64,000 bases of DNA from a virus. Location: the IMG/VR virus record IMGVR_UViG_3300013233_000195, positions 36,624 through 100,623 of that record. One strand, given 5' to 3'. How positions within the stretch are numbered: position 1 is the stretch's first letter; each line of letters begins with the position of its first letter. Below are positions 5,658 through 21,543 of this stretch, in pieces. The notes beneath the pieces were generated by a model that had not been told where the DNA came from, did not search any database, and worked only from the letters and a program-made list of their open reading frames with translations. Position numbers and translations under genes: made by a program.

Positions 5658-5876
5658 ATGAGAACAAAACAAGATCAACTATGCCCGCGCTGTATGGGCA
5701 CAGGAACCTACATATTTCCAGGCGACTCGACCCCAACCTCCTGTGAGTGGTGCCATACCACTGGCAAGGTAGACCGGTACACAAAAGATAGGTGTATAGA
5801 GTTCTACAGACAACAGAAACAAAAGAAGCACATCTCCACCCTCCCAATCCATTTGAGGCCAGCACAGGGCAAATGA
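5658..5876 (+). CDS. Small protein with DnaJ-type CxxCxGxG zinc motifs
   Basis: CPRCMGTG and CEWCHTTG. Confidence 0.65.
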   Translation: MRTKQDQLCPRCMGTGTYIFPGDSTPTSCEWCHTTGKVDRYTKDRCIEFYRQQKQKKHISTLPIHLRPAQGK

Positions 5877-5931
5877 GGGGGACTACAAGCGATTCTCACA
5901 CAAGAGTTGAGCACAGGGAGTGGCCCCCGCT

Positions 5932-6070
5932 TGTGCTCGTTAGTATAACATACCATTTTTTTGAGCTAAATTTACATTGGCTAATTTTTTTTGAGCTTCT
6001 GTGCTCTCACCTGTGCTCTTTAGTGTAACATACCATTTTTTTGAGTCATTTTTATGGTGGCTATTTTTTA
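5932..6070. repeat. Imperfect AT-rich direct repeat, 80-bp period, at the convergence of + and - strand genes
   Basis: TGTGCTCKTTAGTRTAACATACCATTTTTTTGAG at 5932 and 6012. Confidence 0.8.
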
Positions 6071-6153
6071 GCTTAGTTCATGCCACCTTGAGATTTCCGA
6101 TTTTGGAGTAAAAGATATCTATATCTTTTTATCCGGAGTTGGACTGGCGGAAT

Positions 6154-6180
6154 GCCCCACGCGCGCGTTGCGCGTGGGGC
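6154..6180 (-). terminator. GC-rich hairpin downstream of 6191..6868
   Basis: GCCCCACGCGC...GCGCGTGGGGC; no clear U-tract. Confidence 0.45.
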
Positions 6181-6190
6181 CCGCCCCTAC

Positions 6191-6868
6191 CTACTCCGCG
6201 TCGTCGTCCGCGTCGTCGTCCGCGTCGTCGTCCGCGTCGTCGTCCGCGTCGTCGTCCGCGTCGATCAACGCGCGGACGGCCGATTCGGACGCATCCCGCT
6301 CCAGCGTATCAAGCTGGCGGGCCAGCGTTTCGTGATCGGCGATCACGCGTCCCAAAAGCGTGTCGTCGTCCCCAGTAGGACGTTCCAAGAGAGAACGAAC
6401 CCCGCGCAATGCCGACAGATAGAGTTTGTCATGATTCAGAACCGGATACCAGATAGACTTTTGAACCCCCTCCATCGCAAGCCGGGCCTCAGGCTTGTGG
6501 GCAAGGTGCGCAGGGAGTCCGGAAACAATCGCGGCTTGCGCCGTCCATCGGGCGGTTTTTCCCGCCGCGTGATAGGCGACTAGCCGACATTCTCGAAGTA
6601 CTGTATCGGCCTCTTTTCCACCTACCTTGTAGGCGTGAATCTCCACCTCCTGCCCCTTGGGTTTGCGTCCACGCCGCGTAGCTTTGCCTGATACTCCCTC
6701 CGCGATCTTTCGGATTGCGTCAAGGGGATCATCATCGGCCACCATTCCGAGAATCCCGACACCGGCCAAGCCAATCATGCCGACCAAGGTGCCAGCGTTG
6801 ACGACTTGCGCCACAAGCTCCAACGCGAGCAACGCAAGAGCAAAAACGAGGAGCCAAGAACTACGCAT
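6191..6868 (-). CDS. Membrane-anchored protein with acidic (ADDD)n C-terminal tail
   Basis: Two N-terminal hydrophobic segments; SD GGAAGG; GC-rich. Confidence 0.7.
   Translation of the reverse strand: MRSSWLLVFALALLALELVAQVVNAGTLVGMIGLAGVGILGMVADDDPLDAIRKIAEGVSGKATRRGRKPKGQEVEIHAYKVGGKEADTVLRECRLVAYHAAGKTARWTAQAAIVSGLPAHLAHKPEARLAMEGVQKSIWYPVLNHDKLYLSALRGVRSLLERPTGDDDTLLGRVIADHETLARQLDTLERDASESAVRALIDADDDADDDADDDADDDADDDAE
6197..6263. repeat. 12-bp tandem repeat CGCGTCGTCGTC x5.6
   Basis: Seen directly; encodes DADDDADDD... on the - strand. Confidence 0.95.
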
Positions 6869-7033: not shown

Positions 7034-7307
7034 GCCAGACTCTATCCCGTTGATTTTCAACGACTTAGGTTTTCGCCGATCCGTCGATCCGTCAAGCCCA
7101 CCGACACCATCCCGACGGCCAAAACGGCGTAACTCGTTGTCACGTAAGGAGTTAGGCCATTTTCGACCAGCGTAAAGAATTCCGTCAACGGTAAAATCGA
7201 CCGAAACTCGGAAACGCCGAATTCAGCCCCTACAGGCCGAATACGCCCATTCTGCGGTAGGTCCAGAATTATCGAAAGATTCCGTCGATCTGGCCTAACT
7301 TGAGAAA

Positions 7308-7320
7308 AATCAACGGGTTA
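7308..7320 (+). promoter_or_regulatory. IHF-binding consensus site
   Basis: AATCAACGGGTTA matches WATCAANNNNTTR; near-matches at 7043-7067 and 7130-7154. Confidence 0.6.
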
Positions 7321-7356
7321 CGAGGTTCCAGGTTTCGGCTGGCGGATCGGACGGTT

Positions 7357-7441
7357 TGGCACGATTCTTGCTCAAATCTCGAGGGTTTTTTTTGGCACGA
7401 TTCTTGCTCTGGCACGATTCTTGCTCTGGCACGATTCTTGC
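7357..7441 (+). promoter_or_regulatory. Cluster of four sigma54 (RpoN) -24/-12 elements
   Basis: TGGCACGATTCTTGCT at 7357, 7393, 7410 and 7427 (last three in 17-bp tandem) = TGGCACG-N4-TTGC. Confidence 0.8.
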
Positions 7442-8035
7442 TCAACGGCCAAATGATAATAGATTCCCATTCTCAACCCCCCCCATGCTAAACATATCTA
7501 TAGTGTATTCTATACTGTATATTGCTTATCTTATTTCTAATCTTATATTCCAATCCAGTCTTCTAATATTCCAGCCAGTTATTAGTATTCTATTCCGATC
7601 TCCCCAATTTCTTGTTAGAATGGGGCCAAAATCGACTAGAATTTCTTATATTGATAGTATGAGCCCAATACAGTCAATATAGCGTTTTTCACCTCCCCAA
7701 AATGCGTATATTGATAGATAGCTGGGATTATTCCTAAAGGAAACGCACTTTAGCCTTTTCAGAACCGCTATAATCTTTGTATTTCACAGGGGATAATATC
7801 AGGCTAATAACAGTATTATTTATCGCCACAATCAACCGATTTCGGTTGCCATCGCCAGTAAGGCGTCTAGCTTGCGCTCTAAGCGATTTTCATCTTTGGG
7901 GATGCCTGGAGTACCCTATTCGACGATCGTCGATCCTGACGCAATTCAGGGCCGTTCCCGTCGATTCTCCGCCCGTGATCGGGACGCAATTCCCGATTCC
8001 GGGAATCTGGACGCGATACCACAATATGAATATAC

Positions 8036-8075
8036 AAAAAAAATAGGCGCTAGGAGGAATCCCCTAGCACCTATT
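8036..8075 (-). terminator. Intrinsic terminator
   Basis: Hairpin ATAGGCGCTAGG/CCTAGCACCTAT with A-run on + (U-tract on -). Confidence 0.8.
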
Positions 8076-8094
8076 ACTATAGAAGACTAGATTA

Positions 8095-8250
8095 CTAGTC
8101 TTCTATCCTCCTGTAGGAAAAGCACGCGCAAAGCTCCTCAGGATCATACGACTCTCTGTATCTCTTTGCAAGAGCCAGAGCTTCCCTGTGCGTGTCCACA
8201 ATCCCGATCCGGATTTCCCCATCTGGGACTTCCATATAGACTTCAATCAT
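8095..8250 (-). CDS. Hypothetical protein
   Basis: SD GGAGG, coupled. Confidence 0.55.
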   Translation of the reverse strand: MIEVYMEVPDGEIRIGIVDTHREALALAKRYRESYDPEELCACFSYRRIED

Positions 8251-8485
8251 CTTCTTCCTCCTCCAGAAGATCATGAACCGCCCCACAGTCTTCACAAATG
8301 GCACAAGTAATGCCATCTACGAGCCTTCCGCCGCACATACAATACCGGATGGTATTGCTATTCTCTTCGTCCAGTGCATTCCGAATTGAATGATTCAATT
8401 CGGAGAGCTTTTCTAGCCCCACAATATGGGCAGGAAGAATATACTCCTCTTCCTGCCCATAGGGGATTCCGGTTCCTTCAGCCAT
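8243..8485 (-). CDS. Hypothetical Zn-ribbon protein
   Basis: CxC...CxxC; SD GGAG. Confidence 0.55.
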   Translation of the reverse strand: MAEGTGIPYGQEEEYILPAHIVGLEKLSELNHSIRNALDEENSNTIRYCMCGGRLVDGITCAICEDCGAVHDLLEEEEDD

Positions 8486-8858
8486 TGTTATTCTCCAAAT
8501 CGTGAAGGAACGAGTCAACAACGTTTGCGGCCTTTTCTTCCACACCATATCTTTGCAGATACTCGTGGAGAATATGGTTGATAGAATCATCATCATCCAT
8601 ATCCATAAGCATGAAGAGGCTGTTTTCCAAATCGTCCTTCAATTCCGATTCTTCCAATTCTCCATGCTTATACGCTTCCCCGAGAAGATCCGCAAGGAAA
8701 TGGAAAGAACTAACGATGAGAGTCCGAAAAGTCTTATCGTCAATTCCACTATCTAGGCCAGCCTCATGCCCATTGTGAAGAAAACTCACAAAAGGCATGA
8801 GAGAACTTGTCAATTGGAGCCACAATCTTAGTGACTCCAAAGAATGATCTTTGTTCAT
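8478..8858 (-). CDS. Hypothetical acidic protein
   Basis: SD GGAGG, coupled. Confidence 0.6.
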   Translation of the reverse strand: MNKDHSLESLRLWLQLTSSLMPFVSFLHNGHEAGLDSGIDDKTFRTLIVSSFHFLADLLGEAYKHGELEESELKDDLENSLFMLMDMDDDDSINHILHEYLQRYGVEEKAANVVDSFLHDLENNNG

Positions 8859-9011
8859 TCTAAGCCTCCTTCCTTTCCTCCTGGAGAGCCACAATGATAT
8901 TCTGAGTGATAAGATCACACTCCTTATCACTAAGGACATCCTCATACGAATACAGCAGACTTTGCAAATCGCCCATAAACTGGGCGATTCTGAGAGACAG
9001 ATCCTGTTCCA

Positions 9012-9215
9012 TTACATATCCTCCCTGCGGCCATAAAGGCCCAAAAGAGTAAGAATGAGACTATCCACAACGTATCTAACGTCAGTGTTATCATGCTTGG
9101 CACACAGGTCCAGAAGACTAAGCACAATTTGAACAAGTCTTCCAGTAACAGGTTCACTATCAATGCTAATAGGAAGAGTCAGAGTATAGACTTCAGTCTT
9201 GGTGCGAAGCTCCAT
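9012..9215 (-). CDS. Hypothetical protein
   Basis: SD AGGAGGT before MELRTK. Confidence 0.55.
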   Translation of the reverse strand: MELRTKTEVYTLTLPISIDSEPVTGRLVQIVLSLLDLCAKHDNTDVRYVVDSLILTLLGLYGRREDM

Positions 9216-9346
9216 ATCTAACCTCCTATGGAAAGAGAAAAGAGAAAAAGTAATATCTAATAGGCTTTGCAAGCCTACGCTCCAAGTATCGACCCGGACC
9301 CGGGGGCCGGTCAAGCTTGTAAAAACTTTTTTACAATCGGCCCGGC

Positions 9347-9361
9347 TGGCACGATTCTTGC
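9347..9361 (+). promoter_or_regulatory. sigma54 -24/-12 element
   Basis: TGGCACGATTCTTGC; back-to-back with a weak - strand TTGACC-N18-GATACT promoter (9285-9314). Confidence 0.7.
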
Positions 9362-9445
9362 GGGGCCGGCCAGATGGCCTACTGAACAAACGTATAGTAA
9401 AATTTGAAAATCCTTTTTATTGATTGATTTTTTCCCCTTCCGCTG

Positions 9446-9626
9446 TTTATCTTATAATCTCTTTTATATCGCCTAGCTTATCTTATGGGGGATTTCTTAT
9501 CGGGTGTCTTATCTCTAATGAGGCTTCATATCGGCTATCTTATTCTATCATGCTTGACTCTTATCTTATCGGGGCTCTTATAGTGGTTTATATCTTATAA
9601 TGGAATTCTTATCGGGTGTCTTATAA
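9446..9626. repeat. Non-coding tract with about a dozen CTTAT pentamers
   Basis: Includes two copies of TTCTTATCGGGTGTCTTAT. Confidence 0.75.
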
Positions 9627-9627
9627 T

Positions 9628-9662
9628 AAAAAAGGGGATAAGAGCTTTCGCTCTTATCCCCT
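9628..9662 (-). terminator. Intrinsic terminator
   Basis: AGGGGATAAGAGC-TTTC-GCTCTTATCCCCT with A-run. Confidence 0.85.
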
Positions 9663-9683
9663 GTGAGAGAAGAAAGGCTTATA

Positions 9684-10115
9684 TTAGGAAAGCCTCTCCG
9701 CAAGATTGTTGAGATCCTCAAGCATTCCCTTCCCTTGCGTATTCGCAAGAATGGTGTTCATTTCCTGAGCATCGAAGTTTCCTTCACTATCAGTGAAGAG
9801 AAACATCGTAAGAGCAGTAGCAAAGGAAAGCTGAACGTTGAGAGGATTTCCTTCTTCATCCGGAAGAGTCTTTTGAATGACAGGAAAACGCTGTACGTTT
9901 CCCCTACCCTTGCCAGGAAACTTGATAGTAAGCTGCAAGGAAGGAATCTCTTCTCCTGTTTCCGTATCAGGCTTGGAAACAAGCTGAGCGGAAAGATACT
10001 TATGGGGCGATGGGTATTCCTTATGGACAGTGATATTGCTCTGTGATTCTGCCTTATGATTCTCGGGGACTTCAGGAATGAATCCCAGCATTGTAATTCC
10101 TTTCATTGTGTTCAT
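9684..10115 (-). CDS. Hypothetical protein
   Basis: 143-aa ORF followed by a terminator. Confidence 0.65.
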   Translation of the reverse strand: MNTMKGITMLGFIPEVPENHKAESQSNITVHKEYPSPHKYLSAQLVSKPDTETGEEIPSLQLTIKFPGKGRGNVQRFPVIQKTLPDEEGNPLNVQLSFATALTMFLFTDSEGNFDAQEMNTILANTQGKGMLEDLNNLAERLS

Positions 10116-10282
10116 TGTGTTGTGCTATGACCCTAATAGCTTGTGAAACCGTTTTACCATGCTTCACAAGGTATAAGAACATTGGACGCTTCTGGAGAAT
10201 GCTTTGTTTCTCTTTCATATCTTCCTTATGAGAAGAAGGGAAGAGACTGTATTTCTATAGAATTCCTCCTATTTTGAATTGA

Positions 10283-10447
10283 TTAGATATTCCTTGGATG
10301 CTGGGCGATCCAGCGTATGAATTCCGGAAGATTCTTATTCTTTGTTTTCCTTTTTGTTCCCTTTCGGAAACACTTAGCGGATTTGTGCGATGCGTGGGTG
10401 TATTTCAGGTTTCTATCTCTTTTGGACTTTTGCTGTCTTCTTTTCAT
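10283..10447 (-). CDS. Small basic hypothetical protein
   Basis: SD AAGGA. Confidence 0.4.
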   Translation of the reverse strand: MKRRQQKSKRDRNLKYTHASHKSAKCFRKGTKRKTKNKNLPEFIRWIAQHPRNI

Positions 10448-10598
10448 GATGTTCCTTCTGTCGTTGGAAATGACTCGAACAAAGGAAAATCCTTTCACCA
10501 AACTTATAGATGTGGTGTGTTGCGATGTTATCACAGCGGGAACAGTAGTATGTTCCATTGATCTTTGTGACTGGAGCTTGCCTTGTGTTGTATCTCAT
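10413..10598 (-). CDS. Small Zn-finger protein
   Basis: CxxC...CxxH; SD GGAGG. Confidence 0.5.
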   Translation of the reverse strand: MRYNTRQAPVTKINGTYYCSRCDNIATHHIYKFGERIFLCSSHFQRQKEHHEKKTAKVQKR

Positions 10599-11035
10599 TT
10601 CTCCTCCGCAGTAAGTATAAGTCTGATTGCCGCATTCCAATCTATTGCGTTTGATTCACACATTTTTCGGACAACTGGATTGAGCTTGAGAAACCCCTCA
10701 ATAAAGTGATATTGATCCTTTGTCTTGGTAAAGACCTCATCCCTGCAAAAGTGAAGGTGCAGGAAACTTCCAAAGAAATGAATTGAAATGGTCTCAAACA
10801 GAGAACTGTTATCTTCTTTCTCAGAGGGAAAGCAGACATTCTTTTTCAACCCCTTTCTAAGGTCAATTCTAAGGCCCTCTTCCATACCCTTTTCTTTGGG
10901 AAGCCTTACAAAGACCGTCCACTCACAAGCAATTGTTGGAAAGAACCTACTCTTTCCACCGAGAAAACACTCACAATCATAGAAGTCCAGAAGATCCCTG
11001 ACCACATTTAGCACCCATGCACCGCTGATAAGCAT
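10595..11035 (-). CDS. Hypothetical protein
   Basis: Coupled ORF. Confidence 0.55.
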   Translation of the reverse strand: MLISGAWVLNVVRDLLDFYDCECFLGGKSRFFPTIACEWTVFVRLPKEKGMEEGLRIDLRKGLKKNVCFPSEKEDNSSLFETISIHFFGSFLHLHFCRDEVFTKTKDQYHFIEGFLKLNPVVRKMCESNAIDWNAAIRLILTAEEK

Positions 11036-11340
11036 TATTCTTCTCCCTTTCTTGTGTCCACTGATTCGACTTGAAGCAGAGTTGGTGGCACAACCCAAAT
11101 CCCTTTTGTTTTGTCTTCCCTTACTTTGACGTTCTTGACACAAACCTTTATAACTGTCCCATGATAAACTTCCCTTCTCTTGTGAAGCCAAGAGACTCTT
11201 GAACCGACATGAATGGTCTCTCTTACTTTCTGAAGAGCCCTATCCTGGAGCAATTGATTGATTACAATTCTCTCGGATGGCAAGAGATTCTTTCCATGTT
11301 GCAGAATAATGGAATAAACCTCTGTGAAAGCGGTACTCAT
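11035..11340 (-). CDS. Hypothetical protein, SH3-like beta C-terminus
   Basis: SD GGAGG; VGSRVSW...GTVIKV. Confidence 0.6.
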   Translation of the reverse strand: MSTAFTEVYSIILQHGKNLLPSERIVINQLLQDRALQKVRETIHVGSRVSWLHKRREVYHGTVIKVCVKNVKVREDKTKGIWVVPPTLLQVESVDTRKGEE

Positions 11341-11443
11341 TACTTTCCTCCCCTACTGTGAAGGTTTGAAAAGAAGTTACTCCAGCCTCTTATGAGGAGA
11401 AGTATGACAAAAATGTAGATGGCAATGCCAAAAAGGAAGCGCA

Positions 11444-11737
11444 TTATACTTCTGCCTCCCTTGTGTTTTCGATATACTCTCTTGCCTCCTCAAGAGAGTA
11501 GAAGCAGTGAGAACGTGGATTTGTGGAACGGGATGGAAGAACTTCCCAAGTATTTCCGAAACACTCTAGGAAAGTTACTCCATAGAGCTGCTTTTTGGAG
11601 ATAGGACCAATTCCCGTTGAAATTTCATAAATAAGACGATAGGAAGCCTGCCCATACTCCACGATGTTTGGAGTCATCCAGTTTGTTTTTGGAAGTACAT
11701 GATTGAAGATTGCGCGAATTTCGCTGTTTGTCATCAT
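11444..11737 (-). CDS. Hypothetical protein, paralogue of 12958..13272
   Basis: Shared MTPxxVEY, IYExSxGxGPI and LYGVTFL. Confidence 0.7.
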   Translation of the reverse strand: MMTNSEIRAIFNHVLPKTNWMTPNIVEYGQASYRLIYEISTGIGPISKKQLYGVTFLECFGNTWEVLPSRSTNPRSHCFYSLEEAREYIENTREAEV

Positions 11738-12045
11738 TTCTTGCCTCCAAAGGTAGCCTGAAATTCTTCCAAAAAGCACTCCAAGCACTCAATTGCATCA
11801 TCAATCTCTGGAATCCGCAATCTTGAGGAATACTGCTTTTCGAAAATTACTGGGAGACATAGGCTGTACCGATAAACAGCCTCATTTCCCAAAAGGATCA
11901 TTGGAGGAGTTAGAAAACTCTCAATCTCTGGAGAGTACCAAGACTGTCCATTCTCTGTTCTCTTACGGATGTTCCGCAAGAGAACAAGCATCATTTCTAC
12001 CCTAAAACCAATTACTGCTCCCATCTCTGCCTTGAAGCTAATCAT
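11734..12045 (-). CDS. Hypothetical protein
   Basis: Coupled, SD GGAGG. Confidence 0.55.
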   Translation of the reverse strand: MISFKAEMGAVIGFRVEMMLVLLRNIRKRTENGQSWYSPEIESFLTPPMILLGNEAVYRYSLCLPVIFEKQYSSRLRIPEIDDAIECLECFLEEFQATFGGKK

Positions 12046-12365
12046 TATTCACCTCCCTTGATTATTCCTAGACTCTTGAGAAGTTGAATGTTCTCTGCGG
12101 AGAGTTGAGACATAATATCAATCTTTTCTCCGCGCTTCCTTGCTCTTTTCATGGGAATAACTGTCTTTCGTTCTTCCCTCCAAACAGTCTTTCCACTCTT
12201 GAGATAATAGATTCTCTGGCAGGAACTACAATACTTTGTATCACTCCCCTTTCTTACGGTTAGGCGTGAATGACAGGAAGGACAAAAGGTTTCTTTTGGC
12301 CTATTGTCCTTCAATCTTTCTGCTCTGCATTCTGGACACATGCAATTCGGACAATACATTTTCAC
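12045..12365 (-). CDS. Zn-finger hypothetical protein
   Basis: Several CxxC motifs; first gene after the promoter at 12402. Confidence 0.65.
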   Translation of the reverse strand: MKMYCPNCMCPECRAERLKDNRPKETFCPSCHSRLTVRKGSDTKYCSSCQRIYYLKSGKTVWREERKTVIPMKRARKRGEKIDIMSQLSAENIQLLKSLGIIKGGE

Positions 12366-12401
12366 TCTCCTTTCTCTTGGGGACTTTCCCCTAGCGCTTG
12401 C

Positions 12402-12430
12402 ATTATACCATGGCGAGACGTGGCTGTCAA
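12402..12430 (-). promoter_or_regulatory. Consensus sigma70 promoter
   Basis: TTGACA-N17-TATAAT with TGn extension. Confidence 0.85.
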
Positions 12431-12450
12431 GCCCGAAATTCGCCGGGTTT

Positions 12451-12465
12451 TGGCACGATTCTTGC
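12451..12465 (+). promoter_or_regulatory. sigma54 -24/-12 element
   Basis: TGGCACGATTCTTGC. Confidence 0.75.
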
Positions 12466-12564
12466 GGGGCCGGACAACCGTCGGTTTTCGCCTTTTCTTC
12501 AAACTTTCGGGATAAATTGAAACAAATGTTTTCACTTTTTTATATTTCCGCCATTATTGAGTTA

Positions 12565-12777
12565 CTATTTTGAAGATGATTCCTCATCCTCTACTTCAAT
12601 AACTACAGTAAAGAGGCTGCAACTATCGAAAGCAGACATATGAGCATCACCTTGTATTTGTGAGATTGAAATGATCTTTCCCTGTAGTCGGAGTGCATTG
12701 AGCATATCCTCAATTAATTTAGCCCGATCTTCAAAACCAAATCCAATCGTAAACTCTTCTACTTTCAGCTTACTCAT
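12565..12777 (-). CDS. Hypothetical protein
   Basis: SD GGAGG, coupled. Confidence 0.55.
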   Translation of the reverse strand: MSKLKVEEFTIGFGFEDRAKLIEDMLNALRLQGKIISISQIQGDAHMSAFDSCSLFTVVIEVEDEESSSK

Positions 12778-12958
12778 TTTTCCCCTCCTTTTCCACCTTC
12801 CTAGCTAATCTCCTCCGCCTTGACATTTCATTAGCCTTATTTCGGCAAGTAAAGCAGTATTTTGTGGTTACTAAGGGTGATTGTCCACACTGAATACAAC
12901 GCTTTTCTTTCTTACGCTTCAATTGCCAACGTCTTTGCCGAGAAACTTGCTTATCCAT
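12770..12958 (-). CDS. Small basic Zn-finger protein
   Basis: CIQCG...CFTC. Confidence 0.65.
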   Translation of the reverse strand: MDKQVSRQRRWQLKRKKEKRCIQCGQSPLVTTKYCFTCRNKANEMSRRRRLARKVEKEGKNE

Positions 12959-13272
12959 TATTCCTCCTTAGCGCTAGTGTGATTATTCTTGACTTCCTCA
13001 AGGTATTCTTTGGCCTCCTTTAGTGTAAGGAAGACTTGATCTTTTGAGAGGTCTCTATCATCCCATTCTCCCAATTCCCCCAAATGCAAGAAAGTTACCC
13101 CATAAAGAGTCTTATGGGTGATTGGTCCTTCGCCATAAGACAATTCATAGATGGTATCTGGAGTCAATTGTGCGTATTCGACTACTCCCGGTGTCATTAT
13201 GTTTCTTTGTCCATTGAATACCTCTGAGAAGATTTCCTCTATCTCTTGGCTTGACAGAGTCTTTGATAACAT
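12958..13272 (-). CDS. Hypothetical protein, paralogue of 11444..11737
   Basis: Shared motifs. Confidence 0.7.
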   Translation of the reverse strand: MLSKTLSSQEIEEIFSEVFNGQRNIMTPGVVEYAQLTPDTIYELSYGEGPITHKTLYGVTFLHLGELGEWDDRDLSKDQVFLTLKEAKEYLEEVKNNHTSAKEE

Positions 13273-13273
13273 A

Positions 13274-13492
13274 TTATCTCTCCTCTGGAAGAGCACTAGT
13301 AAGGACTTTGATCTCTTCAACGGACATATGCTGTTCCATCGCCATTTTCAAAACACTGCAAGTCTCCTTATGTTTGTAACAGTTACCAGCAAAGTAACCG
13401 CCCATGAAAAGCAGAGTGAAAGCCAGAAAAGAGATCCAGCCCCAAAGATATAGCTTATTATCACTGAGCTGTGGGTTTACTGCTCTTCTCAT
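13274..13492 (-). CDS. Single-TM hypothetical protein
   Basis: SD AGGAGG; hydrophobic segment. Confidence 0.55.
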   Translation of the reverse strand: MRRAVNPQLSDNKLYLWGWISFLAFTLLFMGGYFAGNCYKHKETCSVLKMAMEQHMSVEEIKVLTSALPEER

Positions 13493-13505
13493 TATTATTC
13501 CTCCT

Positions 13506-14045
13506 TTACATGCCCAGGTCATAGATGACTGGCGCTCTAGTATTACAAGAGATTCCACAATTTGTCACAGAACCCCATGAGAAGAAGACATCGTTGATAC
13601 CGTACTTCTCAGTGAGGCCCTTGACCAATTCCTTATCTTCATCCTCAAGACAAGCGTCATGATCAAGGGGGATGTATTCGCAAATTACAACGGGTTCAAC
13701 GAATTGTCGAGTGAATGAGCAACGCTTTGAAGGCGAAAAAGCGTAGAAAGTGGGAAAGTATGGTCTATCCTCATTATCAATATCATGCCATGCAGACCAC
13801 TCATTCTCCCCTTGAACCCCTATCTTGATTACAAAGCCAAACTCTGGAAAAGATAGGACATCTCGACTAGCATTGATCTCTCTGTGGTCTTTGAACGAGT
13901 ATTCCTGCCCATCAATGAAGATTCGAGGAGTCCTATAATCTACTTCATCCATCAACTCCTTTGACGTGGAAGCAGTCAATTCTCCCAATTGAAGCCGTTG
14001 AATAATAATAACCCGATGTCCGAGAACTTCAAAGGACTGAATCAT
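13506..14045 (-). CDS. Putative minimal protein-kinase-like protein
   Basis: VIKI (beta3 Lys), ENE (alphaC), D...TNCG and VIYDLG (DFG-like) in kinase order. Confidence 0.45.
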   Translation of the reverse strand: MIQSFEVLGHRVIIIQRLQLGELTASTSKELMDEVDYRTPRIFIDGQEYSFKDHREINASRDVLSFPEFGFVIKIGVQGENEWSAWHDIDNEDRPYFPTFYAFSPSKRCSFTRQFVEPVVICEYIPLDHDACLEDEDKELVKGLTEKYGINDVFFSWGSVTNCGISCNTRAPVIYDLGM

Positions 14046-14503
14046 TATCTTCCTCCCTCCATTTCTTCCAACCAATCCAAGAAGGCTTCAAGATACTCGA
14101 TCTTCCTATCGTAGTCGGTATCTCTAGCAGTAGCGTACTCATCAAGAGCACCGTAGCAAACCTCAAAGCAATGATGGTAATTAGGAGGAGTATACTTATC
14201 GCACTTGTGAAAAACACAATCACTGCAATAATTCCGGGCAAGCTTACAGTATGGGCAGGTAGACATTAGAAGGGTCAGAATTTGGTCAATATAGACTTCC
14301 TCCCCCCCGTCGTTAGGATCAATCTCTTTATCTCGGAGACTTTCGAGAAGATCCACGAGAATGTTCAATTTCTCCATCGTAAGAGTAAAGGCAATTCTCG
14401 CTCCTTCAATAGAAGTAGAAGAATAGCCTTCTGCTACAAAGTCACTTAGTTTGTCCAAATACGTACTCCACCGTTCCACAATCTCCGCATAAGATTGAAT
14501 CAT
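14045..14503 (-). CDS. Cys-rich hypothetical protein (tandem paralogue 1)
   Basis: LTMEKLNIL and MSTCPYCKL shared with the next gene. Confidence 0.75.
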   Translation of the reverse strand: MIQSYAEIVERWSTYLDKLSDFVAEGYSSTSIEGARIAFTLTMEKLNILVDLLESLRDKEIDPNDGGEEVYIDQILTLLMSTCPYCKLARNYCSDCVFHKCDKYTPPNYHHCFEVCYGALDEYATARDTDYDRKIEYLEAFLDWLEEMEGGR

Positions 14504-14988
14504 TCCTCTTCTCCTTCCTTTCCAAAGTGTTCTTCAAACCAATCCATGAAGGCTTCAAGATACTTGATTTTCCCTTGGAAGAAGTCATCATCCTTCAGGT
14601 TAGTATACTTATCAAGGGCACGACGGGATACTCGCAAACAGGGAGGAGGAAAGCCAGGCTCGTTTTTATGAAACCTGGAGAAGAGACAATCTTCACAGTA
14701 GCTGCCTGAGAGTTTACAGTAGGGGCAAGTTGACATTGAAAGACAAAGGATATTCTCAATATCCTCCCAAAGCTCAAACCCATTCTCATCTAGGGAATGA
14801 GGATCAACCTTGTAATCCCTAAGATCCTTGAGAAGATCCATGAGAATGTTCAATTTTTCCATTGTCAAACCGTAGGCAATATGCGCTCCACGAGAAGAAT
14901 TAGGTGGATAACCTTCACCACCAAAACTCTTCAATTCTTCTAAGAAAAGAGTCCAACGTTCTTCAATTGCCTCAAAAGAATCCATCAT
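14500..14988 (-). CDS. Cys-rich hypothetical protein (tandem paralogue 2)
   Basis: As above; SD AGGAGG. Confidence 0.75.
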   Translation of the reverse strand: MMDSFEAIEERWTLFLEELKSFGGEGYPPNSSRGAHIAYGLTMEKLNILMDLLKDLRDYKVDPHSLDENGFELWEDIENILCLSMSTCPYCKLSGSYCEDCLFSRFHKNEPGFPPPCLRVSRRALDKYTNLKDDDFFQGKIKYLEAFMDWFEEHFGKEGEEE

Positions 14989-15042
14989 ATCCTCCTAGAT
15001 GGAAGTTTTGGAGTGCTTGGGGACTTTCCCCTAGCGCCTATA

Positions 15043-15071
15043 ATTATACCACGGCGGAGATCGGGTGTCAA
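15043..15071 (-). promoter_or_regulatory. Consensus sigma70 promoter
   Basis: TTGACA-N17-TATAAT, TGn. Confidence 0.85.
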
Positions 15072-15091
15072 GCCCGAATTTCGCCGGGTTT

Positions 15092-15106
15092 TGGCACGAT
15101 TCTTGC
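15092..15106 (+). promoter_or_regulatory. sigma54 -24/-12 element
   Basis: TGGCACGATTCTTGC. Confidence 0.75.
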
Positions 15107-15126
15107 GAGGAGCCACAAGCGGAGAC

Positions 15127-15168
15127 AAAAAAATAGCCTAAAGGATATGGAAATCCTTTAGGCTATTA
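15127..15168 (-). terminator. Intrinsic terminator
   Basis: AATAGCCTAAAGGAT/ATCCTTTAGGCTATT with A-run. Confidence 0.85.
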
Positions 15169-17207: not shown

Positions 17208-17846
17208 CTAGTGAAGAGGGTAATCAACCCATGAAACCGAACGATCCCAGCAAGCGCGACAAGAGCCACAATTGTTGCCCTGTAGCCTTGCAGGGCACCT
17301 ATAAGTGTCCTTTGGCGCTTCACCCTTTGTAACGGTCGAAAAAGGGAGCTTGCGAAACCTCTTAGGCTTTTTATTGATAAAAGGCCCGCTTACTCTCACT
17401 ACTAGGTTCTTTGGCAGTCTTCCTCCTTCTTCATAGAATCTACGAAGAATGTCTGTTTGCCTTGTTGGCAGCCAATGCTTTACATTGGGAGTTCTCTTGC
17501 AGACTTCCACAATTCTACGAAAGTGTTGGAGACTCTGAAGATCTCCTGAATCATGCCAACGGAAGTAAGGATGCTTTTTGGCTCTCTTTCCAATAAGAGT
17601 TACCATTGCTTCAATCCACTTAGGACTTCCTAGCTTTGCATATCTACGGAAGTAAGCGCTTTTGGCTGAGGGATAGGTATAGTTCCCTCTATTGTTCGCA
17701 TAGCAGTGACCACAAACAGAGTTTGGAACACCCATCATCTTCTTGCCGAGCTTACAAGTGCTTACTGGAAGCCCAAAAGCGTATCCTGGCATCTTAGAGG
17801 GTTCGGAAAGCCCTCCAACGATTTCGTTTGCCATTTTGATATTCAT
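17208..17846 (-). CDS. Gp88-like (radical-SAM-related, Cys-rich) phage protein
   Basis: SKMPG, CxxCYA, FRWHDSGD, HWLPTR, CxxCRACW. Confidence 0.75.
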   Translation of the reverse strand: MNIKMANEIVGGLSEPSKMPGYAFGLPVSTCKLGKKMMGVPNSVCGHCYANNRGNYTYPSAKSAYFRRYAKLGSPKWIEAMVTLIGKRAKKHPYFRWHDSGDLQSLQHFRRIVEVCKRTPNVKHWLPTRQTDILRRFYEEGGRLPKNLVVRVSGPFINKKPKRFRKLPFSTVTKGEAPKDTYRCPARLQGNNCGSCRACWDRSVSWVDYPLH

Positions 17847-20457: not shown

Positions 20458-21543
20458 CTAGAATGGGGGACGAACTGCCATAGCCTTCCGAATAGTCAAT
20501 CCCAGGTAGTAGTCGCTATCATGGTGTGTCCTAGCCTTTCCGTGTGAGTAATTCCACAGGATTGTGGCTATCTCAGCTACAGTGAAGCGATTTTTAGCTA
20601 GGAAGGCAGCTAAAGCGTAGTCAAGACCTGAACGAGAGTGATCTGCTTTCTGCGTTGTATTCCCAAGCCACAGTTGGCGCACTCTTTCATTACGAAGTAG
20701 CTCTAAAGAGAACCTAGCAGGAAGCTGTGCTTCCTTATAATCTCCCAGAGTAAAGTCAACTCCCTCAATAGTACGAAAGTTACTACTCTGTATATTTTCA
20801 ACAGAGATTTTGGTAACTTCATCCATCATGAGAGAAAGTCTACCATCCCAAGGTTGAAGGATCTTAGCCATTCTGTGGGGGCGCTCTGGAGTATTCTCTC
20901 CTTTGATGCAGAGAGTCCCAGGAATCTTTACAATTCGGGCAAGATCGTAGACATTATCAATATTAATCCTAAACTTATGTTCCCACTTACTTCTTAGCTG
21001 ATCCTCCCACACCATTAACTGTTTGGTAATCTCTTCTCTCTTATTGGGTTCAATCTTGTAATGATGCACAGGGAACCAGGGATAGGCTCCATTTCCAGAG
21101 CTAATAATGGGATTGTTCTCATCCTTGGCAATCTCTTGAGCAGCTCTAATTGCCTGTAGGTGCTCTGCTTCTGTTGCCGCACAATTTCCACAGTTGGGCC
21201 TTTTGGCATCTATGTCAAGAGACAGGTTAGAAATCCACTCAATGTCAGTAGAACGTCCTCCCCGGCAAATGTCTTCCTTATGGAAGGAAATCCTATTTCT
21301 TAGATTGGGAGTGACAATAGCCTTTGGTCTTGCATTTCTTCCTGCGTAGAGATTATACTTTCCAGCAAGCTCTGCTAGAGCATCTACAAAAGCATCTTCG
21401 GACACAAAGAAACCCAACCCAATGTGTGGGCCAAAGCGCTCCTTTGGATTGATTGCTCGGACCTCTGTACATGACTGTGGGAGTTCATGGTGTCCCAAGA
21501 GCTTCCAAAAGGCTCTGACATCCTTTTCATTAAACTTTTCCAT
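20458..21543 (-). CDS. Primase-like protein (AEP/RepB'-type with helical C-terminal domain)
   Basis: LDIDA, SSGNG, RIVKIPGT, DxSRSGxDYAL. Confidence 0.65.
   Translation of the reverse strand: MEKFNEKDVRAFWKLLGHHELPQSCTEVRAINPKERFGPHIGLGFFVSEDAFVDALAELAGKYNLYAGRNARPKAIVTPNLRNRISFHKEDICRGGRSTDIEWISNLSLDIDAKRPNCGNCAATEAEHLQAIRAAQEIAKDENNPIISSGNGAYPWFPVHHYKIEPNKREEITKQLMVWEDQLRSKWEHKFRINIDNVYDLARIVKIPGTLCIKGENTPERPHRMAKILQPWDGRLSLMMDEVTKISVENIQSSNFRTIEGVDFTLGDYKEAQLPARFSLELLRNERVRQLWLGNTTQKADHSRSGLDYALAAFLAKNRFTVAEIATILWNYSHGKARTHHDSDYYLGLTIRKAMAVRPPF

Follow-up and report, generated by a model that had tools for sequence, protein, structure and literature searches.

The RNA polymerase that carries sigma-54 is regarded as part of a bacterial system serving stress, nitrogen and motility genes. 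At a sigma-54 promoter it stays in a stable closed complex until an AAA+ activator acts. The transcription programmes of phages are explained by sigma-70, phage sigma factors, phage polymerases and modifiers of the host enzyme. The present analysis deals with a 15-mer, TGGCACGATTCTTGC (the box), which occurs seven times in the right-hand 64 kb of the 100,623-bp IMG/VR virus record IMGVR_UViG_3300013233_000195 (CheckV completeness 37 %); this stretch of 64,000 nucleotides is called the window. The seven 15-mers are probably, as predicted from their sequence, high-affinity −24/−12 sites for the sigma-54 RNA polymerase of the host. With a probability of roughly 40 % they are enhancer-dependent antisense (convergent) promoters which would damp the early operons beside them.

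Several described systems come close. In the pspF–pspA type, sigma-70 and sigma-54 promoters diverge, each drives genes of its own, and the binding site of the activator is in the interval. Lambda oop and P22 sar are phage antisense RNAs against early genes, each a defined short RNA from a single sigma-70 promoter. Intragenic and antisense sigma-54 sites of E. coli and Salmonella bind holoenzyme without an adjacent served gene and are mostly silent; they are degenerate, scattered in genes and in many cases weakly occupied, and a role in antisense transcription or interference is discussed for them (PMC4591121; PMC3844500). An earlier reading made from the sequence alone (the original prediction) knew of no description of this architecture, and our literature searches likewise found no paper on sigma-54 boxes in phage genomes. 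The nearest item is a 2026 preprint in which the T4-like AAA+ protein Htm, devoid of a GAFTGA loop, is proposed to resemble a bacterial enhancer-binding protein (bEBP) and is speculated to act on sigma-54 polymerase.

The boxes share the recognition sequence and the GG-N10-GC spacing with bacterial −24/−12 promoters such as glnAp2 and pspA, and a match of the integration host factor (IHF) type lies upstream of the four-box array. However, they are found in a phage, serve no gene, have no clear enhancer and come without an activator gene detected in the record; in addition, they include overlapping tandem copies and are all antisense to the local genes. As in the pspF–pspA type, sigma-70 and sigma-54 promoters stand back-to-back within about 100 bp, but the sigma-54 promoter points into the end of a different operon. 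A convergent promoter 3′ of an early unit would give a complementary RNA, as with oop and sar, although here four units are concerned, the promoters would be sigma-54 boxes and no RNA end is defined. In contrast to the sites of E. coli and Salmonella, the seven copies are identical, of perfect consensus, intergenic and under selection. Bacteria are known to have sigma-54 promoters as well as sigma-54 sites that are silent or antisense; for the use by a phage we found no published study. Among the viral contigs with sigma-54 boxes this phage represents a distinct variant, with identical antisense copies on one strand at the tails of four consecutive operons, back-to-back with a sigma-70 promoter at three of the four loci.

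Seven identical boxes in four gaps between operons

An exact scan found the copies, all on the plus strand and intergenic, where the original prediction had seen them. Box 1 lies at 7357–7371 and boxes 2–4 at 7393–7441, the latter starting at 7393, 7410 and 7427 with the 17-bp tandem period described before (TGGCACGATTCTTGC+TC). Box 5 is found at 9347–9361, box 6 at 12451–12465 and box 7 at 15092–15106. Transcription starts were placed 12 nt beyond the GC, which equals the offset of 19 bp from the motif centre used in PMC4591121; they are predicted near 7383 for box 1 (7383–7453 for the whole array), 9373, 12477 and 15118.

Variants with one or two mismatches were not found in the window, and dinucleotide-preserving shuffles held 0.14 copies on average, none of 100 reaching seven. 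The genome-wide scan that had been proposed was carried out and found no eighth copy in the remainder of the record; the seven are confined to the plus strand of the window. The only other perfect-core box of the record, TGGCACGTTAATTGC, has a different N4 and lies outside the window at genome positions 20919–20933 (+), in sense orientation within a 367-aa open reading frame (ORF) of the plus arm. With two core mismatches allowed, 11 extra matches appeared versus 7.6 per shuffle, which is background. Because seven perfect copies exist and no intermediates, the element behaves as all-or-none.

The consensus of the sigma-54 −24/−12 element is TGGCA(T/C)(G/A)nnnnTTGC(A) (PMC11704786). All seven boxes match its core at 11/11 positions and keep the GG-N10-GC spacing, and the chance of a 15-mer reaching 11/11 is about 2e-7. 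Between loci only the 15-mer itself is conserved, with sharp boundaries on both sides, while the flanks differ. As far as can be judged from the letters, the earlier assignment to sigma-54 is borne out, and binding of the sigma-54 holoenzyme appears likely, provided that the host has rpoN. The array copies carry a T after TTGC. Hairpins in the flanks of the boxes were considered and rejected by eye, their arms not being complementary.

An alternative assignment, which we consider unlikely, is an operator: a phage-encoded DNA-binding protein would repress or activate the early sigma-70 promoters from a site that resembles or deliberately mimics a sigma-54 site. The identity of all seven copies at 15/15 positions, including the N4 that sigma-54 reads weakly, would suit such a protein. 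So would the location of the box (about −56 to −70 relative to two perfect sigma-70 promoters, where activators classically bind) and the neighbouring proteins, which are orphans without assigned function. The full core match would then, however, be an implausible coincidence, the conservation would happen to stop exactly at the limits of a sigma-54 element, and the 15-mer is asymmetric and forms no dyad. Furthermore, it does not keep a constant distance to the −35 (20, 32 and about 170 bp), and no copy overlaps or abuts a core promoter.

The genes flanking every box are on the minus strand, and the boxes occupy four consecutive gaps between small sigma-70-driven minus-strand operons (units A to D). 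Unit A extends from promoter P9314 through genes 9215–8095 to an intrinsic terminator at 8075–8042 (a 15-bp stem, then a T run). Unit B extends from P12430 through genes 12359–9684 to a terminator at 9662–9633, and unit C from P15071 through genes 14988–12565 without a terminator; the 3′ end of unit D consists of genes 15678–15232 followed by a terminator at 15167–15132. P12430 (12402–12430) and P15071 (15043–15071) match TTGACA-N17-TATAAT perfectly (12/12) and have a TG extension. The promoter region of unit A (9285–9337) is weaker (9/12, TTGACC-N18-GATACT) and contains an A/T dyad at 9318–9337 resembling an UP element. Past the 3′ ends of units A, B, C and D the next box follows after 601, 272, 86 and 26 nt, respectively, and each faces back into the unit. 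No plus-strand ORF with a ribosome site lies downstream of any of the seven, in agreement with the earlier statement that no ORF is served.

In the other direction, the −35 of the next unit's sigma-70 promoter is 20 bp away from boxes 6 and 7 and 32 bp from box 5. The pairing with sigma-70 promoters that had been claimed for all copies therefore holds at these three loci and fails at the four-box array, where the nearest sigma-70 candidate (9/12) is about 170 bp off. P12430 and P15071 belong to a family of eight near-perfect minus-strand sigma-70 promoters (36398, 34722, 32427, 26820, 22424, 20189, 15071 and 12430) with TG-extended −10 elements and GC-rich spacers. In the six members without a sigma-54 box, a T-rich stretch precedes the −35 instead.

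The position of the boxes behind operon ends also bears on a polymerase roadblock (roadblocks had been suggested in the original prediction) or insulator, in which a stable closed complex past the terminator would stop read-through into the next promoter. The T run of a strong terminator is 19–26 nt away from box 7, the operon ahead of box 6 lacks a terminator, and terminator, box and sigma-70 promoter follow one another in this order in the viral contig L112 too. Yet strong terminators are already present in three of the four gaps, and bound sigma-54 holoenzyme was tested for this function in E. coli and had no effect (3/85 genes, p=0.47; PMC4591121), which amounts to a rejection for the sites of that organism. 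Among viral boxes a terminator is adjacent in 3/128 versus 26/1800 controls (1.4 %); such adjacency was discarded as a general feature of the box, and a roadblock function is very unlikely.

Conservation of the cassette and of the box in other viruses

Boxes 6 and 7 are part of a promoter cassette on the minus strand, whose repetition, with the box 20 bp from a divergent perfect −35, was correctly noticed before. Its two copies, 12376–12480 and 15016–15121, align with each other and consist of the box, a 20-bp linker, the −35, the spacer, the −10 and a 22-nt leader hairpin segment. The box (15/15), the linker (19/20), the −35 (6/6) and the leader segment (22/22) are conserved, while the sigma-70 spacer (9/17), the flank beyond the box (11/30) and the positions after the leader (2/10) have decayed. 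Taken together, box, linker and −35 agree at 40/41 positions, against an identity of 37–53 % at neutral positions; the single change in the linker is the central base of a small dyad. Box 5 keeps 15/15 in DNA that is otherwise hardly alignable. Judged from this alignment, the cassettes are old duplicates in which box, linker and −35 form one constrained block. Since this block is conserved while neutral positions have decayed, and since box 5 is intact in nearly unalignable DNA, the comparison indicates that the boxes are maintained by purifying selection. The leader segment with hairpin GGGGACTTTCCCC (12376–12397, identical to 15016–15037) is situated just past the predicted sigma-70 start, and a related sequence is contained in the terminator at 8042–8075.

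The conservation as a single block is also compatible with docking sites that are never fired, by which replicating phage DNA would sequester sigma-54 or its holoenzyme. They might act as a decoy, comparable to the sponge of the original prediction, which drains the small sigma-54 pool of the host and silences its sigma-54 regulons, or a polymerase held at the box might modulate the sigma-70 promoter 20–32 bp away via overlapping upstream contacts. Perfect consensus would then mean maximal affinity instead of tunable strength, and overlapping tandem copies would increase occupancy and not output. The GC-rich start region of the dispersed copies, the lack of a served gene and of an activator in the 100.6-kb record fit as well, and sigma-54 is reported to repress where its site overlaps another promoter, most bound sites being transcriptionally silent (PMC4591121). 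However, about 82 bp separate the two predicted starts, so both polymerases could probably bind together. For a decoy the orientation should be irrelevant, yet every copy is on one strand, and seven sites per genome are few compared with the arrays of 11–25 boxes in other contigs. Docking without firing is considered possible but doubtful.

A scan of IMG/VR for the exact 15-mer listed 134 matches in 120 loci. Of the listed matches, 73 lie outside any frame of at least 100 codons, compared with 23 % of control positions (p=3.5e-15), and the intergenic ones have a co-oriented downstream gene in 45 versus 16 cases (p=3e-4), for example ahead of terS–terL. Terminase genes occur within 1–4 kb of the box in 28 of the listed loci. 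As the same box mostly precedes genes in other phages, a real enhancer-dependent promoter, here with a non-coding product, is the simplest reading; the same tendency to face genes argues against sites that only dock polymerase. On the other side, strong sigma-70 promoters back-to-back with the box are enriched elsewhere (9/130 boxes vs 33/3600 control positions, p=1e-5) in at least four lineages, and the unrelated contig L016 has the identical 20-bp/N17 geometry, which favours docking.

A second IMG/VR sample of 110 viral loci with 362 boxes was selected for two perfect-core boxes close together, N4 being disregarded. The most frequent N4 is ATTC (37/362), A-T-T-C also results when the consensus of N4 is taken position by position, and over its whole length the position-wise consensus of the 362 boxes is TGGCACGATTCTTGC. 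Membership in this large viral family accounts for the constant N4 with no need of a second factor and suggests recognition by a conserved host protein, sigma-54. The contigs with the same 15-mer have no detectable proteins in common with this phage, save two small ones shared with one family, a further argument against an operator for a phage-encoded regulator.

Tandem pairs of perfect-core boxes were found in at least 119 stretches of IMG/VR, where about 0.3 are expected by chance. None was found in the 406 bacterial genomes searched, and the viral figure, being a lower bound, gives no rate comparison. The array at 7357–7441, with at least two perfect-core boxes within about 40 bp in a gene-free gap, is of the same class. 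The other phage arrays likewise consist of perfect-core boxes in gene-free gaps, tandem or facing, in phages without a sigma-54 or bEBP gene. In most of them, however, N4 varies, the boxes face both ways or towards genes and a 26-bp spacing is preferred, whereas the present copies are identical, on one strand, dispersed over 8 kb and arranged with a 17-bp period in the array. Same-strand viral pairs peak at a spacing of 26 bp (24–28), with smaller groups at 37–41 and 16–19 bp, and facing pairs at 18–19 bp, leaving a gap of 3–4 bp. At the preferred spacings, neighbouring viral boxes could not hold two holoenzymes together.

The boxes may tentatively be seen as part of a widespread phage strategy that captures the host sigma-54 RNA polymerase, either as decoys or as sites fired by a phage activator. 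As decoys, perfect sites on replicating phage DNA may switch off the sigma-54 stress and defence regulons of the host. In the fired form, a phage activator may replace the bacterial enhancer-binding proteins, with a programmed antisense shut-off of early operons in the present case. If phages keep perfect sigma-54 sites under selection, they either exploit the host sigma-54 polymerase in infection or target it; the sites bracket early operons in antisense here and elsewhere precede packaging genes or form dense arrays.

A protein of the GP88 family (PF17338, viruses only) is encoded at 17208–17846 (−), and homologues lie directly beside an exact box in six contigs (L008, L016, L023, L059, L087 and L116). 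It has conserved CX13CX2C and KCxxCxxC motifs. GP88 was considered as the activator and rejected: its AlphaFold model (pLDDT 71) gave no PDB match, and the cysteine motifs look like those of a metal or Fe-S enzyme and not of an AAA+ ATPase.

Proposed antisense transcription of the early operons

The sequence shows the match with the consensus, the placement of the boxes, the constraint on them and that no ORF is served, whereas binding by sigma-54, firing and an antisense effect are inferred. Without an active activator ATPase, a box would hold polymerase as a closed complex. The activator would be a bEBP of the host or a protein encoded in the unsequenced part, about 60 %, of the phage genome. 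Once it acts, non-coding transcripts would start about 12 nt past TTGC and run antisense through units A to D, each through the operon just ended; those from the array and from box 5 would first cross gene-free, AT-rich, repeat-bearing DNA. The antisense transcription would damp or shut off the operons by transcriptional interference or by RNA pairing. Numerous antisense and intragenic sigma-54 sites have been shown in E. coli by a study that leaves open whether active antisense sigma-54 promoters cause interference (PMC4591121). Among the functions offered by the original prediction, the antisense promoter is the most economical; for another of them, anchors for genome entry, no evidence was found.

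Several points weigh against this reading. The search for a bEBP gene, which had been called for, found neither PF00158, PF14532 nor another AAA+ activator in the 100.6-kb record (37 % of the estimated genome), whose only AAA-like matches are DnaB and an SMC/SbcC-like protein. A convincing upstream activator site was not found either, save for possible dyads and the CCGTCGAT words around the array. The three dispersed boxes have a G after TTGC, followed by a very GC-rich stretch from −11 to −1 which may impede melting; in the 362 other viral boxes, an A or T directly follows TTGC in 79 %. In the array, three boxes at 17-bp spacing cannot be used simultaneously. The joint conservation of box, linker and −35 fits a coupling to sigma-70 equally well as an independent antisense promoter. 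Finally, the common antisense orientation stressed in the original prediction holds for all seven copies, but it rests on 3–4 independent loci (p about 0.06–0.12), two of which are duplicates, and is weak evidence.

If phages indeed place perfect sigma-54 sites under selection, phage development would be tied to the state of the enhancer-binding proteins of the host, and rpoN mutants should alter infection, which would provide a simple genetic handle. Activators of a new kind may come to light. The 105-bp cassette is small enough for direct in vitro and reporter tests.

Sigma54_DBD was not found in the phage record, nor was a sigma-70-family factor or an HU/IHF gene. Hints on the host are diverse: for one gene, the best-matching homologues that carry names belong to metagenome-assembled genomes (MAGs) of Planctomycetota, Pirellulales and Gemmatimonadaceae (42–45 % identity), the names of the DUF932 homologues are taxonomically mixed, and homologues of a captured defence ATPase of the phage are spread across many phyla.

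DNA around the array and gene content of the record

Downstream of the array, 0.6 kb (7453–8041) is free of genes and includes an AT-rich valley with 28 % GC at 7500–7599. The valley contains short repeats at 7497–7546, and the GC-rich half of the region two GACGCAATTC repeats. In RNA folding of this 589-nt stretch, the plus strand gave z −3.0 (0/100 shuffles) versus −1.3 for the minus strand, a weak support for a plus-strand transcript. No Rfam family matched at or near the gathering score in 5–17 kb. Directly downstream of box 5, the DNA at 9395–9625 is likewise AT-rich and bears iteron-like direct repeats: TCTTATCGGGTGTCTTAT in three to four copies with a 31-nt period (9448–9625), beside a stretch of 30 % GC and between the terminator and box 5. 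The TCTTATCGGGTGTCTTAT repeats could be an origin or a regulator-binding array.

Transcription fired from the boxes into this adjoining AT-rich, iteron-bearing DNA might activate or prime a replication origin. AT-rich valleys with repeats directly follow the array and box 5, the order of box, AT-rich stretch and TTGTGACTGC repeats recurs in the unrelated contigs L019, L075 and L096, and perfect DnaA-box words are present near boxes in L018 and L087. Boxes 6 and 7, however, are not followed by DNA of this kind, the meeting of the two gene arms near 5.9 kb looks more like a terminus than an origin, and no initiator gene was identified in the record, so that a role in replication seems remote. 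Contigs L019, L075 and L096 belong with L025, L037 and L119 to a family with a repeated module, in which a perfect sigma-70 promoter with a short hairpin-rich transcript stands back-to-back with a box at 41–45 bp, followed by the AT-rich DNA and the repeats. In L018, L087 and also L102, the perfect DnaA-box words (TGTGGATAA) are no more than about 100 bp away from boxes or facing pairs.

Upstream of the array, the IHF consensus WATCAANNNNTTR is matched at 7308–7320 (+), 37 bp before box 1. The match reported earlier is thus real, but because the window contains three such matches versus about two expected by chance, its position is suggestive only. It lies in the right arm of a 27-nt inverted repeat (7043–7069/7294–7320, 78 % complementary) whose arms enclose 224 nt ahead of the array. 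The three copies of the word CCGTCGAT in the window (7081, 7282 and 7958) all fall within 900 bp around the array. Nothing comparable to the IHF or CCGTCGAT-like features was found at the dispersed boxes.

The record derives from a large phage with 35 tRNA genes at 22–34.7 kb. Capsid, tail and helicase genes are carried by the minus strand, DnaB and the SbcC-like gene by the plus arm. Plus-strand genes stop at 5876, and the minus arm spans from 64 kb down to 6191. Its last 14 kb encode small proteins without Pfam or PHROG matches; most of the small minus-strand genes have AGGAG or GGAGG upstream of the ATG. No helix-turn-helix or regulator family was recognised among the orphan proteins neighbouring the boxes, and no homologue was found for the 225-aa protein adjoining the array. 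Close relatives of the phage were detected neither by megablast against isolated phages nor in IMG/VR by pattern scans with capsid or early proteins; tblastn gave distant matches only, and the capsid has only seven relatives, at 36–41 % identity.

The orphan gene at 6191–6868 (−) is GC-rich (55–73 %), and its product is hydrophobic at the N-terminus and ends in a (DDDA)n tail encoded by perfect 12-bp repeats. No homologue of this product was found among 5.8 billion proteins at the lengths searched. Where the plus and minus gene arms converge, two 67-nt direct repeats, 79 % identical, are located at 5923–6069 and are adjoined by GC-rich palindromes at 6141–6186.

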